Positions 6,794 to 14,759 of a stretch of 64,000 nt of DNA are shown here, piece after piece. How positions within the stretch are numbered: the first letter of the stretch is position 1; each line of letters begins with the position of its first letter. Origin of the DNA: Escherichia coli (lineage in GTDB: Bacteria; Pseudomonadota; Gammaproteobacteria; Enterobacterales; Enterobacteriaceae); assembly GCF_003334305.1 (NCBI RefSeq), contig NZ_QOWS01000001.1; one strand, given 5' to 3'. The notes beneath the pieces are model-generated. The model ran no database searches. It was not told where the DNA came from and saw only the letters and a list, made by a program, of their open reading frames with translations. A program made the position numbers and the translations under genes.

Positions 6794-6950
6794 TAAAAGG
6801 TGTGTTACAGGGCAGAAATTTCCTGCCCTGTATCATTGGATGAGCGCAAAGGGAATGACCGGTTTGTAAATGTAATTTTATGAATTTAAATGGTTTTATC
6901 TTTCAGTAGAAACCTGAAACGTTCATCAAACACTAAGGTTATTTCCTCAA

Positions 6951-6976
6951 GGGCAGATTATTTTCTGCCCTTTTTT
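6951..6976 (+). terminator. Rho-independent terminator downstream of fruA
   Basis: GGGCAGA-ttatttt-TCTGCCC hairpin followed by TTTTTT. Confidence 0.6.
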
Positions 6977-7116
6977 AGTGTTCCTGTTCTGTGCATCCCG
7001 TCACAAATTCCTCGCTTTTGTAATTCAGGCATTTAATCGCATTTTGTGAGCCTGCTCAAATCTGCCCATTTTGCCTCTCTGGCGGTAATTTACTTTACGT
7101 AAAACATGCATACTAT

Positions 7117-7150
7117 GAGCACATGTTTAAATATGAACACATGTTTAAAC
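7117..7150. promoter_or_regulatory. Tandem direct repeat (2 x 16 bp) in the psuK upstream region, candidate regulator binding site
   Basis: gagcACATGTTTAAAt and gaacACATGTTTAAAc, 2 bp apart, about 70 bp upstream of the psuK ATG; function unknown. Confidence 0.3.
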
Positions 7151-7216
7151 CGTCTTTGCAGTATCTATATTCTTGTGGATTGACAGGGTTGGTAATTTTT
7201 TACCAGAGGACGTGCT

Positions 7217-8158
7217 ATGCGCGAAAAGGATTATGTCGTAATTATAGGTTCGGCGAATATTGATGTCGCCGGATATTCACATGAATCATTAAATTATGCG
7301 GATTCAAATCCAGGTAAAATAAAATTTACGCCTGGTGGAGTAGGGCGCAATATTGCACAAAACCTGGCGTTGCTGGGTAACAAAGCCTGGCTACTGAGCG
7401 CAGTAGGCAGTGATTTTTATGGTCAATCGCTGCTAACGCAAACCAATCAATCTGGCGTTTATGTCGATAAATGCCTGATTGTGCCGGGAGAAAATACGTC
7501 TAGTTATTTATCATTACTCGATAATACCGGTGAAATGCTGGTTGCTATAAATGACATGAATATTAGCAACGCTATTACAGCTGAATATCTCGCACAGCAC
7601 CGTGAATTTATTCAGAGGGCAAAGGTCATTGTCGCAGACTGTAATATCAGTGAAGAGGCACTGGCATGGATTCTGGATAATGCCGCCAACGTACCCGTAT
7701 TTGTCGATCCGGTTTCAGCGTGGAAATGTGTCAAAGTGCGCGACCGTCTAAATCAGATCCACACTCTGAATCCAAACCGCCTTGAAGCGGAAACACTGAG
7801 TGGGATTGCGCTGTCAGGGCGTGAAGATGTGGCAAAAGTTGCTGCCTGGTTCCATCAACATGGCCTGAACCGACTGGTATTGAGCATGGGCGGCGATGGC
7901 GTTTATTACAGTGATATCAGCGGTGAAAGTGGCTGGTCTGCCCCGATCAAAACCAATGTTATTAATGTTACCGGAGCGGGCGATGCCATGATGGCGGGAC
8001 TTGCTTCGTGTTGGGTAGACGGAATGCCGTTTGCCGAATCTGTTCGTTTCGCACAGGGATGTTCGTCAATGGCGCTCTCCTGTGAATACACCAATAACCC
8101 CGATTTATCGATTGCCAACGTTATATCGTTAGTGGAGAACGCAGAATGTCTGAATTAA
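7217..8158 (+). CDS. psuK: Pseudouridine kinase PsuK (YeiC), 313 aa
   Basis: pfkB-family sugar/nucleoside kinase (GAGDAMMAG motif); overlaps psuG. Confidence 0.9.
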   Translation: MREKDYVVIIGSANIDVAGYSHESLNYADSNPGKIKFTPGGVGRNIAQNLALLGNKAWLLSAVGSDFYGQSLLTQTNQSGVYVDKCLIVPGENTSSYLSLLDNTGEMLVAINDMNISNAITAEYLAQHREFIQRAKVIVADCNISEEALAWILDNAANVPVFVDPVSAWKCVKVRDRLNQIHTLNPNRLEAETLSGIALSGREDVAKVAAWFHQHGLNRLVLSMGGDGVYYSDISGESGWSAPIKTNVINVTGAGDAMMAGLASCWVDGMPFAESVRFAQGCSSMALSCEYTNNPDLSIANVISLVENAECLN

Positions 8159-9084
8159 AAATTTCCCCTGAATTATTACAAATTTCCCCGGAAGTGCAGG
8201 ACGCTTTAAAAAACAAAAAACCGGTTGTGGCGCTGGAATCGACCATTATTTCTCACGGGATGCCGTTCCCACAAAATGCCCAGACCGCAATTGAAGTAGA
8301 AGAAACTATTCGTAAACAGGGCGCAGTACCTGCCACTATCGCCATTATTGGCGGCGTGATGAAAGTGGGTTTAAGCAAAGAAGAAATTGAATTACTGGGT
8401 CGTGAAGGGCATAACGTGACCAAAGTTAGTCGTCGCGATTTACCTTTTGTTGTTGCCGCCGGAAAAAATGGCGCAACCACTGTGGCTTCAACGATGATTA
8501 TTGCGGCGCTTGCCGGAATTAAAGTATTTGCCACCGGGGGAATTGGTGGTGTGCATCGCGGGGCGGAACATACCTTCGATATTTCTGCCGATTTGCAAGA
8601 ACTGGCAAATACTAATGTCACCGTTGTTTGTGCCGGGGCGAAATCTATTCTCGATTTAGGATTAACAACAGAATATTTAGAAACCTTCGGTGTGCCGTTA
8701 ATTGGCTATCAGACAAAAGCGCTGCCTGCGTTTTTCTGCCGTACCAGCCCATTTGAAGTCAGTATTCGCCTTGATAGTGCCACGGAAATCGCTCGTGCAA
8801 TGGCAGTGAAATGGCAAACCGGTTTGAACGGCGGCCTGGTAGTGGCGAATCCGATCCCGGAACAGTTTGCGATGCCGGAGGAATCTATCAATGCAGCCAT
8901 AGATCAAGCCGTCGCCGAAGCCGAAGAGCAGGGCGTTATTGGTAAAGAAAGTACACCGTTCCTGCTGGCGCGCGTTGCTGAGCTGACCGGCGGTGACAGC
9001 CTGAAATCCAATATCCAGCTGGTGTTCAACAACGCCATTCTGGCGAGTGAAATTGCCAAAGAATACCAGCGTCTCGCGGGTTAA
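8146..9084 (+). CDS. psuG: Pseudouridine-5'-phosphate glycosidase PsuG (YeiN), 312 aa
   Basis: 312-aa ORF overlapping the psuK 3' end by 13 nt; position and length match YeiN. Confidence 0.9.
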   Translation: MSELKISPELLQISPEVQDALKNKKPVVALESTIISHGMPFPQNAQTAIEVEETIRKQGAVPATIAIIGGVMKVGLSKEEIELLGREGHNVTKVSRRDLPFVVAAGKNGATTVASTMIIAALAGIKVFATGGIGGVHRGAEHTFDISADLQELANTNVTVVCAGAKSILDLGLTTEYLETFGVPLIGYQTKALPAFFCRTSPFEVSIRLDSATEIARAMAVKWQTGLNGGLVVANPIPEQFAMPEESINAAIDQAVAEAEEQGVIGKESTPFLLARVAELTGGDSLKSNIQLVFNNAILASEIAKEYQRLAG

Positions 9085-9177
9085 TTTCTGACGGGCAGAA
9101 AGCCGTCGCCCGTACTCATCAAGCATACCAAAACCTGGCGCTGACGCCGGGTTTACTGGCATGAAGGGAAAATCATT

Positions 9178-10428
9178 ATGGATATAATGAGAAGTGTTGT
9201 GGGGATGGTGGTGTTACTGGCAATAGCATTTCTGTTGTCAGTGAATAAAAAGAGCATCAGTTTGCGCACGGTTGGAGCCGCACTGCTGCTGCAAATCGCT
9301 ATTGGTGGCATCATGCTCTACTTCCCACCGGGAAAGTGGGCAGTAGAACAGGCGGCATTAGGCGTTCATAAAGTGATGTCTTACAGTGATGCCGGTAGCG
9401 CCTTCATTTTTGGTTCGCTGGTTGGGCCGAAAATGGATGTCCTGTTTGACGGTGCGGGTTTTATCTTCGCCTTTCGCGTACTTCCGGCGATTATTTTCGT
9501 TACTGCGCTCATCAGTCTGCTGTACTACATTGGCGTGATGGGGCTGCTGATTCGCATCCTTGGCAGCATTTTCCAGAAAGCTCTTAACATCAGCAAAATC
9601 GAATCTTTTGTCGCAGTCACAACTATTTTCCTCGGGCAAAATGAGATCCCGGCGATCGTTAAACCGTTTATCGATCGCATGAATCGCAACGAGTTGTTTA
9701 CCGCAATTTGTAGCGGGATGGCGTCCATTGCTGGTTCGATGATGATTGGTTATGCCGGAATGGGCGTACCAATTGACTACCTGTTAGCGGCATCGCTGAT
9801 GGCGATCCCAGGTGGTATTTTGTTTGCACGTATTCTTAGCCCGGCCACCGAGCCTTCACAGGTCACATTTGAAAATCTGTCGTTCAGCGAAACGCCGCCA
9901 AAAAGCTTTATCGAAGCGGCGGCGAGCGGTGCGATGACCGGGCTGAAAATCGCCGCTGGTGTAGCGACGGTGGTAATGGCGTTTGTCGCAATTATTGCGC
10001 TGATCAACGGCATTATCGGCGGAATTGGTGGCTGGTTTGGTTTCGCCAATGCCTCTCTGGAAAGTATTTTTGGCTATGTGCTGGCACCGCTGGCGTGGAT
10101 CATGGGTGTGGACTGGAGTGATGCCAATCTTGCGGGTAGCCTGATTGGGCAGAAACTGGCGATTAACGAATTCGTCGCTTACCTGAGTTTCTCCCCATAC
10201 CTGCAAACGGGCGGCACGCTGGAAGTGAAAACCATTGCGATTATCTCCTTTGCGCTTTGTGGTTTTGCTAACTTTGGTTCTATCGGTGTTGTCGTTGGCG
10301 CATTTTCGGCTATTTCGCCAAAACGCGCGCCGGAAATCGCCCAGCTTGGTTTACGGGCGCTGGCAGCAGCAACGCTTTCCAACCTGATGAGTGCGACCAT
10401 TGCCGGGTTCTTTATTGGTTTAGCTTGA
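9178..10428 (+). CDS. psuT: NupC-family nucleoside transporter PsuT (YeiM), 416 aa
   Basis: 416-aa polytopic membrane protein; very similar to the ORF at 12365..13615. Confidence 0.9.
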   Translation: MDIMRSVVGMVVLLAIAFLLSVNKKSISLRTVGAALLLQIAIGGIMLYFPPGKWAVEQAALGVHKVMSYSDAGSAFIFGSLVGPKMDVLFDGAGFIFAFRVLPAIIFVTALISLLYYIGVMGLLIRILGSIFQKALNISKIESFVAVTTIFLGQNEIPAIVKPFIDRMNRNELFTAICSGMASIAGSMMIGYAGMGVPIDYLLAASLMAIPGGILFARILSPATEPSQVTFENLSFSETPPKSFIEAAASGAMTGLKIAAGVATVVMAFVAIIALINGIIGGIGGWFGFANASLESIFGYVLAPLAWIMGVDWSDANLAGSLIGQKLAINEFVAYLSFSPYLQTGGTLEVKTIAIISFALCGFANFGSIGVVVGAFSAISPKRAPEIAQLGLRALAAATLSNLMSATIAGFFIGLA

Positions 10429-11155: not shown

Positions 11156-11323
11156 CAATTGCTGCTTAAGATCATTATTGTGGATTTCTTTCACGATGTT
11201 TATCCGCTATGAGATTTCTCATATTTAGCATACGTACGCGGTTGGTAAGATTCAATCATCGGCCCGGTCGAATTTTCTTTGCTGTAGAAAAAATAACGCA
11301 ACTGGAAACAGAGGAAATAAACA

Positions 11324-13639: not shown

Positions 13640-13674
13640 ATGCGGTCAAGCGTCGAATCCGGCAACATTGTTAC
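13640..13674. repeat. REP-like palindromic element between convergent nupX and yeiI
   Basis: GCCGGATAAG ... ATCCGGCA inverted repeat. Confidence 0.5.
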
Positions 13675-14759
13675 ACCATTGGCACTAATGAAAGCGCGTT
13701 ATCGGCAGACAGGGTAGGGTTGTTTAAGCTGCCGCTGGCGCGCGAAATTGCCGCGCAGGCTACCGCAAAACGGGCGCTGTCGCGGAAACTGTATCCTTCA
13801 AGAAAGCTATATACCAAGCCCGCCATAAAACCATCGTCAGCACCAAAACTGTCTACTGTCGTATGCGCTGGCGCGGTCAGCAAAAATTGTTCTCCATCCT
13901 TTTCGCTGCAATAAACTGACTCATCGGGCAAATAAACAAACAGTTGCTGAACACCTTGCTGATGCAATGCATTCACTGCGGCATTACGGTCAGCATCGCT
14001 GGTGATCGCCTGTCCCCATAAAATTTCCAGCTCCGGTAAAGTGGGTTTCAGGGTGTGAATATGCGCCAGCCAGTGTTTGATTTTGCCCGCTTTGAATTCT
14101 GAAACGGTATCGACAAACACCGGGATTTCATCAGCGAGGGTAAAGACCCATTCCAGCGCCTCGGCTGTCAGGTTGCAATCAGCCAGTACCACGCCCGCAT
14201 GACGAAGTAAATCGCGCGACCCGTTCAGTAGTTGCGGTGTCAACTGTTCCAGCAGATGGGTATCGTTAATCGCCAGCACGGTTTGATCGTCTCGATTGGC
14301 AATTGCCAGATACGTCGATGTGCTTTGACCATGCAAACGAACGCAGCCGGAGACATTCACGCCGGCACGGCGCGTTTCTTCCAGGAGCATTTCGCCATAA
14401 AAGTCATCGCCAATCACTGAAAGCAAATGGACGTCACGGCCTAACAGCGCCAGATTGTGGGCGATGTTGCGTCCCACGCCGCCCGCCGAGCAATGAATTG
14501 TACCGGGATGAGAAGCCGCTTGCGGGTAACGGATATCCGCCATCCCGCGAATATCCATATTGATTGTCCCCACCACTACGCAGTATTCCTGCTCGGTGAG
14601 AATGTAACCTTTGCCTTTAATCCGCCCTTTGCGCATTAAATCCATAATATGCGCCGCAACGCGCGAACGACTGATTTGCAGCATGTCCGCAATTTCGTTC
14701 TGCTGAATCAGCGGGTTACGCCGTAAAATTGCAAGGATCTCCTTTTCCCGGTTATTCAT
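13671..14759 (-). CDS. yeiI: HTH-domain plus pfkB-family kinase YeiI, 362 aa
   Basis: N-terminal HTH (MNNREKEILAILRRNP...) fused to a pfkB kinase domain resembling PsuK. Confidence 0.9.
   Translation of the reverse strand: MNNREKEILAILRRNPLIQQNEIADMLQISRSRVAAHIMDLMRKGRIKGKGYILTEQEYCVVVGTINMDIRGMADIRYPQAASHPGTIHCSAGGVGRNIAHNLALLGRDVHLLSVIGDDFYGEMLLEETRRAGVNVSGCVRLHGQSTSTYLAIANRDDQTVLAINDTHLLEQLTPQLLNGSRDLLRHAGVVLADCNLTAEALEWVFTLADEIPVFVDTVSEFKAGKIKHWLAHIHTLKPTLPELEILWGQAITSDADRNAAVNALHQQGVQQLFVYLPDESVYCSEKDGEQFLLTAPAHTTVDSFGADDGFMAGLVYSFLEGYSFRDSARFAVACAAISRASGSLNNPTLSADNALSLVPMV

Follow-up and report, generated by a model that had tools for sequence, protein, structure and literature searches.

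The window, by which we mean the whole 64-kb stretch of Escherichia coli DNA analyzed here, carries fruBKA on the plus strand, followed by a 423-bp spacer, psuK, psuG, psuT, yeiL (minus strand), rihB, nupX, yeiI (minus strand) and nfo; the gene identities were confirmed by the RefSeq annotation of a strain identical across the fruA-psuK spacer. The operon under the psuK promoter (psuKp) occupies positions 7217–10428 of the plus strand and consists of psuK (7217–8158), psuG (8146–9084) and psuT (9178–10428). The gene yeiI (13671–14759, minus strand) is located directly after nfo, 3 nt from the nfo stop codon. Two terminator-like hairpins follow fruA (6803–6835 and 6949–6972); they have GGGCAGA/TCTGCCC arms in common and lie 142 nt apart, and strain NCTC9022 has between them an extra insert of about 150 nt that looked REP/BIME-like by eye. 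Also, the yeiL-rihB spacer contains a perfect 16-bp palindrome, TATGAGATTTCTCATA (11208–11223), with the CRP/FNR-type geometry TATGA-N6-TCATA. The start codon of yeiL (GTG at position 11194 of the list of open reading frames) is 14 nt away, and the palindrome is a candidate site for YeiL autoregulation or for the control of rihB.

Upstream of psuK, a repeat search revealed an 18-bp tandem duplication on the plus strand. The first unit, TATGAGCACATGTTTAAA, is located at 7114–7131 and the second, TATGAACACATGTTTAAA, at 7132–7149, and the two are identical at 17 of 18 positions. Their common exact core of 12 nt, CACATGTTTAAA, occurs twice in the 64-kb window, both times within the repeat. The 423-bp fruA-psuK spacer was shuffled 1000 times with its dinucleotides preserved, and 18-mer repeats were sought within 18–30 nt. 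The best direct repeat then reached at most 15 of 18 matching positions, and no shuffle (0/1000) attained the 17 observed. The 3′ end of the repeat is 67 nt upstream of the psuK ATG (7217). An earlier note on this DNA had reported a 16-bp direct repeat, about 70 bp upstream of psuK, with an internal ACATGT palindrome in each unit; the repeat, its distance and the palindrome were all found again, and the period was corrected from 16 to 18 bp. The head-to-tail sites with a 10–11 bp period that are typical of OmpR/PhoB-type response regulators were not observed, the period here being 18 bp.

A K-12-type spacer was present in 4232 of 5426 complete E. coli genomes. In this haplotype, the right half and the flanks of unit 2 match unit 1. 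Strain NCTC9022 represents a divergent haplotype, with about 81% nucleotide identity for psuK and yeiI alike, whose units read TATGAACATGTGTTTAAA and TCTGAACACGTGCTCTAA: both of the boxes described below are kept and the near-perfect direct repeat is gone. The direct-repeat register has likewise disappeared in E. albertii, Citrobacter and others, and NCTC9022, E. albertii and Citrobacter present TGCTC or TGTTC followed by TAA at unit 2 instead of the K-12-type right half. In strain EA7 (NZ_CP069709.1), an exact 18-bp deletion (about 7120–7137) leaves a single unit. The same strain carries an IS5 inserted just upstream of a CRP-like site (about 7036), which recalls the activation of cryptic operons by IS5.

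More generally, E. coli contains two deeply divergent allele classes, with about 81% nucleotide identity between them, for yeiI and for psuK together with its promoter; for yeiI, 2060 of 5423 genomes fell in the 80–90% identity band. The window is a mosaic in this respect, its psuK promoter being identical to that of strain 120899 and its yeiI being of the K-12 type, whereas strain 120899 has the other yeiI class. We dropped gene loss as the explanation for the 1200 E. coli genomes that gave no megablast match to psuK, at least part of which have the allele of about 81% identity. As a separate observation, a deletion in E. coli ER1709 fuses a truncated fruB to a point 60 nt upstream of psuK, with loss of fruK, fruA, psuKp and both boxes, and fused PfkB and PTS_EIIA_2 reading frames similar to this deletion were present among the database matches.

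What persists across genera is a pair of 12-bp inverted repeats, RAACA-NN-TGTTY, 18–19 bp apart, which was found in Escherichia, Citrobacter, Klebsiella, Enterobacter, Salmonella, Yersinia, Serratia, Pasteurella, Shewanella and Aliivibrio. In the window, box 1 (GAGCA-CA-TGTTT, 7117–7128) shows one mismatch to this pattern and box 2 (GAACA-CA-TGTTT, 7135–7146) shows none, so that both boxes have dyad-symmetric half-sites. An alignment of psuK upstream regions from Escherichia spp., E. albertii, Citrobacter, a metagenome-assembled genome (MAG) labelled Raoultella, and Buttiauxella gave the footprint GArCA-yr-TGTTy, 6 nt, GAACA-yr-TGyTy after the −10 hexamer, conserved above the neutral background of these orthologous promoters. 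The order of the conserved elements was a CRP-like site, the −35 TTTAC, the −10, box 1, box 2, about 40 unconserved nucleotides, and then a hairpin with the Shine-Dalgarno sequence. All four half-sites are conserved, the outer ones included. Positions A2, A3, C4, A5, G9, T10 and T11 of box 1 were conserved in 13/13 aligned taxa, and a count matrix of 26 boxes gave 25/26 for A2, A3, C4 and A5, 26/26 for G9 and 24/26 for T11. The start-to-start spacing is 18 nt in Enterobacterales and Pasteurella and 19 nt in Shewanella and Aliivibrio; in Klebsiella, two perfect boxes are 18 nt apart. Box 1 adjoins the −10 hexamer in every member of the Enterobacterales that we examined.

Only Escherichia, Citrobacter and Buttiauxella served to define the box pattern, which was then sought in the 150 nt upstream of the HTH-PfkB-psuG operons of six more distant genera (Yersinia, Serratia, Pasteurella, Xenorhabdus, Shewanella and Aliivibrio). 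It was found again as a pair at 18–19 nt in five of the six. The eight box matches obtained compare with 0.44 expected, and the five pairs at 18–19 nt with 0.027 expected; neither number was reached in any of 5000 shuffles (0/5000 in both cases). In Xenorhabdus, the proximal boxes were absent and a single far-upstream box was present, and single far-upstream boxes were also seen in Yersinia and Serratia. Within the 64-kb window, the pair at psuKp is the only one of its kind. The one other exact RAACA-NN-TGTTY match lies within the yeiE coding sequence, and the scan of the window revealed no box motif near yeiI, yeiL, rihB, nupX or nfo. While comparing these loci, we observed that the HTH-psuK genes of Yersinia and Serratia have been given a start (MFK...) that falls inside box 1 (positions 8001–8030 of their own loci), and that the conserved N-terminus MTSREKQIL begins 30 nt downstream of it. 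Judging by the sequence, the public gene calls are thus probably 10 codons too long.

The earlier note had taken the tandem direct repeat itself as a functional signature. This did not hold, as the units are two 5-2-5 inverted repeats outside the K-12-type haplotype, and we dropped recognition of a direct repeat, its register being confined to one haplotype. ACATGT as a functional core was also dropped: the palindrome is present in the window and is not conserved as an element, since the flanking half-sites are fixed and the central dinucleotide varies across taxa (CA, TG, CG, TA, GA or AA). We propose that the tandem repeat is the form that a conserved operator-box pair takes in K-12-type E. 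coli, and that the right half and flanks of the K-12-type box 2 were overwritten to match box 1; the near-perfect direct repeat would then reflect a recent homogenization of box 2 to box 1 and no functional requirement. It could be argued that the duplication arose by neutral slippage and has no function at all, given that its direct-repeat form is particular to one haplotype and that it is deletion-prone, with one unit left in EA7. We regard this as very improbable: the underlying box pair is kept across orders with fixed spacing and promoter position, and the 67-nt segment containing promoter and operator repeat is identical in 3688 of 4213 genomes with a K-12-type spacer.

The position of the promoter was given by a recurrent adaptive mutation. 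Evolution experiments in the mouse gut by the Gordo laboratory have repeatedly given one single SNP, psuK/fruA A-to-C at 2257444 (NC_000913.2), in most independent mice (PMC7518454, PMC9509342). Four srlR mutations listed in the same tables served to calibrate the offset between NC_000913.2 and NC_000913.3, and only +1978 fits all four. The SNP then corresponds to window position 7091, 126 nt upstream of the psuK ATG, in a stretch where K-12 and the window are identical. It is a T-to-G change on the window strand (A-to-C on the K-12 reference strand), converting TTTACT into TTGACT. As the SNP hits the third T of TTTACT, the −35 hexamer of psuKp is fixed at 7089–7094 and the −10 hexamer TACTAT, after a 16-nt spacer, at 7111–7116, both on the plus strand. 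TTTAC is invariant across genera within a conserved island, ATTTAC (7088–7093), and the −10 is conserved as TAyyAT, with TATTAT in NCTC9022 and E. albertii. The promoter that precedes box 1 in Yersinia and Serratia is likewise of the form TTTACT-N15-17-TAnAAn. The recurrent psuK/fruA SNP is therefore a −35 up-mutation. In long-term stationary phase, one psuKp A-to-C allele was reported in three populations (PMC7858067), with no position stated; it is probably the same change. The source papers, as far as their available sections go, term the SNP intergenic or located in the 'promoter region' and do not place it in a hexamer.

With this placement, the start site of psuKp would fall at about 7122–7124, and the boxes would be centered at about +1 (box 1, center 7122.5) and +19 (box 2, center 7140.5). 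Box 1 begins 1 nt after the −10, and the pair overlaps the −10/start region and the early transcribed region, which is the position expected of a repressor if the start site deduced from the sequence is correct. The idea of a candidate operator in the psuK promoter was borne out, no other stretch from the −10 hexamer to the ribosome-binding site having so strong a phylogenetic footprint. An upstream site of the activator type was not, as the repeat extends over the presumed start site and the 3′ edge of the −10. The literature searched contained neither a measured psuK start site nor binding, footprint or ChIP results at the boxes.

A predicted CRP-like site, TGTGA-gcctgc-TCAAA, is located at 7045–7060; following from the same −35/−10 placement, its center (7052.5) would be at about −70.5, a class I position. 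Its TTGTGA and TCA were invariant in 12 sequences, the alignment giving TTGTGA-N6-TCAwA, and the site is also present in Enterobacter, Salmonella and Klebsiella. A second, weaker CRP-like site, TGTGC-atcccg-TCACA (6990–7005, center about −125.5), is partly conserved as TGTG...TC.C.A and lies 55 bp upstream of the first. We presume that tandem CRP-like sites at this spacing resemble those of CytR-type nucleoside promoters. A published table of in vitro CRP footprints has no entry for the psuK CRP-like site (PMC12871828).

Another element of the transcribed leader is a predicted hairpin, UUGGUAA-UUUU-UUACCAG (7189–7206, plus strand), whose 3′ arm enters the Shine-Dalgarno sequence AGAGGA (7205–7210). 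In an alignment of 11 distinct sequences, 98.5% of the cells were paired and two pairs had changed on both sides. The arms read GGTAA..TTACC in E. coli, GGCAA..TTGCC in Citrobacter and GGCAT..ATGCC in Salmonella, with a G-U pair in E. albertii. Control of mRNA stability or of translation are possible roles of this hairpin. A sigma-54 reading of the TGGCAA-N-TTGCC hairpin was dropped upon inspection of the alignment by eye, the spacing being genus-variable and the K-12-type sequence having no −12 GC.

The boxes themselves can also pair. If the element acted in the mRNA leader, an 11-bp AU-rich hairpin (7125–7135 with 7140–7150) near the 5′ end of the transcript would affect stability or translation; its predicted energy is −9 kcal/mol (z = −4.5), and similar box 1:box 2 hairpins were predicted in NCTC9022, Citrobacter and Yersinia. 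However, two palindromes of one consensus always pair, as RNA or as a DNA hairpin, whether or not this has a function. The pairing register differs between haplotypes, and the central and terminal box positions present no covariation. Moreover, the left half of box 1 adjoins the −10 and is thus expected upstream of the start site, and the single far-upstream boxes of Yersinia, Serratia and Xenorhabdus fit DNA binding better. Rfam gave no family match, the best being at chance level (E = 0.44). Altogether, we judge a role in RNA distinctly unlikely and consider the boxes as DNA sites in what follows.

The earlier note had proposed the local regulators YeiL and YeiI as binders. YeiL belongs to the CRP/FNR family and is encoded 3 kb away, and each unit begins with TATGA, the half-site of the palindrome in the yeiL-rihB spacer. 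Its candidacy is nevertheless scarcely credible, and we dropped it on site geometry and co-occurrence: the boxes are 5-N2-5 and not the 5-N6-5 of the family (TGTGA-N6-TCACA type), TATGA has no TCATA partner half, and the boxes are present without an adjacent yeiL in the loci of Citrobacter, Enterobacter, Klebsiella, Yersinia, Serratia, Pasteurella, Shewanella and Aliivibrio, being kept where yeiL, rihB and nupX are not inserted beside the operon.

YeiI, in contrast, became a credible binder. It is composed of a winged helix-turn-helix (wHTH; HTH_24, residues 1–48) and a PfkB kinase-like domain (residues 58–348). The HTH_24 match had an E-value of 2e-10 in Pfam, which supports a DNA-binding domain, and the AF2 model of the N-terminal part (residues 1–59) had a pLDDT of 85. 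Foldseek matches of this model were wHTH domains of Lrp/AsnC, MarR and LexA proteins (TM 0.75–0.86), and the N-terminal profile gave LrpA as its best match (E = 8e-6), with weak matches to BirA wHTH chains (E about 4e-3). The gene is directly beside psuKGT in Citrobacter, Buttiauxella, Enterobacter, Klebsiella and a mobile Salmonella island, with no yeiL-rihB-nupX between. A separate psuK is missing from Yersinia, Serratia, Pasteurella, Xenorhabdus, Shewanella and Aliivibrio: their operon opens with an HTH-PfkB gene, behind which come psuG and, in most of the six genera, psuT. The recognition-helix residues SRS-VA-HIM are invariant across YeiI and these fused kinases. In Salmonella enterica, yeiI and psuT-psuG-psuK make up a module of four genes, which lies apart from fruBKA and has a transposase and a RelB/ParE toxin-antitoxin pair as neighbors; this suggests that regulator and operon move together.

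Paired boxes were found at 15 of 16 loci with an HTH-PfkB gene in cis and at 0 of 3 without one, a co-occurrence that involves few independent lineages and gave p = 0.004 by locus and p = 0.048 once collapsed to lineages (Fisher tests). The three loci without the gene are the HTH-less psuK-psuG-psuT operons of Aeromonas, a Pasteurellaceae MAG and Bartonella sp., where no box was detected within about 400 nt.

The kinase domains point to a division of roles. PsuK shares 57–60% identity with the kinase domains found in the fused proteins and only 38% with YeiI, and the NCBIfam PsuK model scored 458 bits with the Yersinia protein and 258 bits with YeiI. The motif GAGD is present in PsuK and in every fused kinase, whereas YeiI and its Enterobacter and Salmonella orthologues have GADD. 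Ser30, Asn143 and Lys170 are pseudouridine-specific contacts (PMC9061257), and in our alignment their equivalents are invariant, YeiI included. Since YeiI keeps the residues that contact pseudouridine and has a non-canonical phosphoryl-transfer motif (GADD for GAGD), we propose for it a sensor role, in which PsuK would be the enzyme and YeiI the sensor-regulator, as far as their sequences indicate.

On balance, we think it probable that the box pair at psuKp is a repressor operator, with YeiI as its binder and as a sensor of pseudouridine or pseudouridine-5′-phosphate; the repressive mode, the binder and the identity of the ligand are what we infer. In this mechanism, a dimeric regulator bound to the boxes would block RNA polymerase binding or promoter escape and so repress psuKp, a sigma-70 promoter that may be activated from the conserved CRP-like site at about −70.5. 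The likeliest binder would be YeiI, a winged-helix-PfkB protein and paralogue of the pseudouridine kinase, whose orthologues in Yersinia, Serratia, Pasteurella, Shewanella and Aliivibrio are encoded by the first gene of the operon, straight behind the same box pair. Binding of pseudouridine or pseudouridine-5′-phosphate would release YeiI from the operator. Two observations speak against this reading: the Xenorhabdus operon has no proximal boxes, and yeiI, which in E. coli closely follows nfo and has no box pair near it in the window, gives no sign of autoregulation. In the literature searched, we found no regulator of psuKGT, no regulation of the operon by YeiI or YeiL, and no regulator role for a PfkB ribokinase-fold kinase.

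The boxes could also be a real operator pair bound by another transcription factor, of the DeoR/GlpR type, IclR/KdgR-like or some other conserved gammaproteobacterial regulator, YeiI being merely a kinase paralogue. A DeoR/GlpR-type protein would recognize the inner TGTTT-N6-GAACA. The inner 16-mer, TGTTTAAATATGAACA, resembles the DeoR operator, TGTTAGAATTCTAACA, at 11/16 positions, and the Citrobacter version, TGTTTGATAGTGAACA, resembles the GlpR consensus; the match to DeoR and GlpR operators would thus be a partial one (11/16 and 13–15/20). Furthermore, if YeiI limited expression, knockouts of yeiI would be expected among adaptive changes as a larger mutational target, as is the case for frlR, dgoR and srlR. 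Among the gut and stationary-phase adaptive changes given in the available parts of the source papers, no yeiI mutation was seen, and the −35 promoter SNP was the sole psu-linked target and the only one to recur. This absence is unexpected if YeiI alone limits expression, at least for the changes that these sources report. On the other hand, the outer half-sites are conserved too, and a single 16-bp site of the DeoR/GlpR type would have no need of them; moreover, in four orders the boxes go together with the HTH-PfkB gene, and the three operons without it have none. We therefore hold a different binder to be unlikely, and retain YeiI as the preferred one.

The proposed system can be compared with several known ones. 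Like YeiI, the biotin ligase/repressor BirA, NadR and the ROK proteins NagC and Mlc combine an N-terminal winged helix with an enzyme-like metabolite-binding domain, and in such systems, as at psuKp, a palindromic operator lies across the promoter of the operon that it controls. However, the sensor domain of YeiI is a PfkB ribokinase-fold kinase, and the psuK operator consists of two 12-bp boxes 18 bp apart where BirA has the single 40-bp bioO. The arrangement also follows a lac-type logic, in which a class I CRP site is combined with an operator at or after +1: psuKp has a CRP-like site at about −70.5 and palindromes at about +1 and +19, its −35 and −10 are weak, and up-promoter mutations are selected when the substrate is useful. 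In contrast to lac-type systems, the proposed psuK repressor is not of the LacI family, and the boxes have a 5-2-5 geometry and no central CG. As in the psuK boxes, DeoR/GlpR operators are AT-rich TGTT...AACA inverted repeats, present as multiple adjacent sites in a context of nucleoside catabolism; they differ in that the outer half-sites are conserved at psuK and that the boxes follow the HTH-PfkB gene and no DeoR-family gene. Finally, the YeiI N-terminal domain matches the winged helices of the Lrp/AsnC and MarR types best, both in sequence and in fold, but YeiI has neither a RAM nor a MarR dimerization domain, and dimerization would come from its PfkB domain.

The comparison of fused and separate genes also allows a broader, more tentative proposal, which seems to us plausible though short of probable: wHTH-PfkB proteins may form an undescribed family of metabolite-sensing kinases/repressors. 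In most Gammaproteobacteria, one fused protein would phosphorylate pseudouridine and also repress its own operon via two RAACA-NN-TGTTY boxes, and a duplication in the Escherichia-Citrobacter-Klebsiella group would have split these roles, PsuK losing the HTH and YeiI changing GAGD to GADD and turning into a dedicated sensor-repressor. Also, the K-12-type repeat would render the operator deletion-prone and thereby able to switch between two boxes and one box.

When E. coli adapts to the mouse gut, the psuK/fruA spacer is one of the targets hit most repeatably, and in long-term stationary phase an A-to-C SNP of psuKp recurs as well. Our analysis supplies a map of this promoter, with its CRP-like site, −35, −10, two operator boxes and leader hairpin, and explains the recurrent SNP. 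Read from its sequence, the feature appears to be a pair of repressor operators whose predicted cognate regulator belongs to the uncharacterized wHTH-PfkB family, and YeiI, an E. coli protein without assigned function, is proposed to act as the regulator of the psuKGT operator. If true, this would add a new enzyme-derived sensor family to the bacterial transcription factors and would constitute a clear case of a bifunctional ancestor split into two specialized genes.
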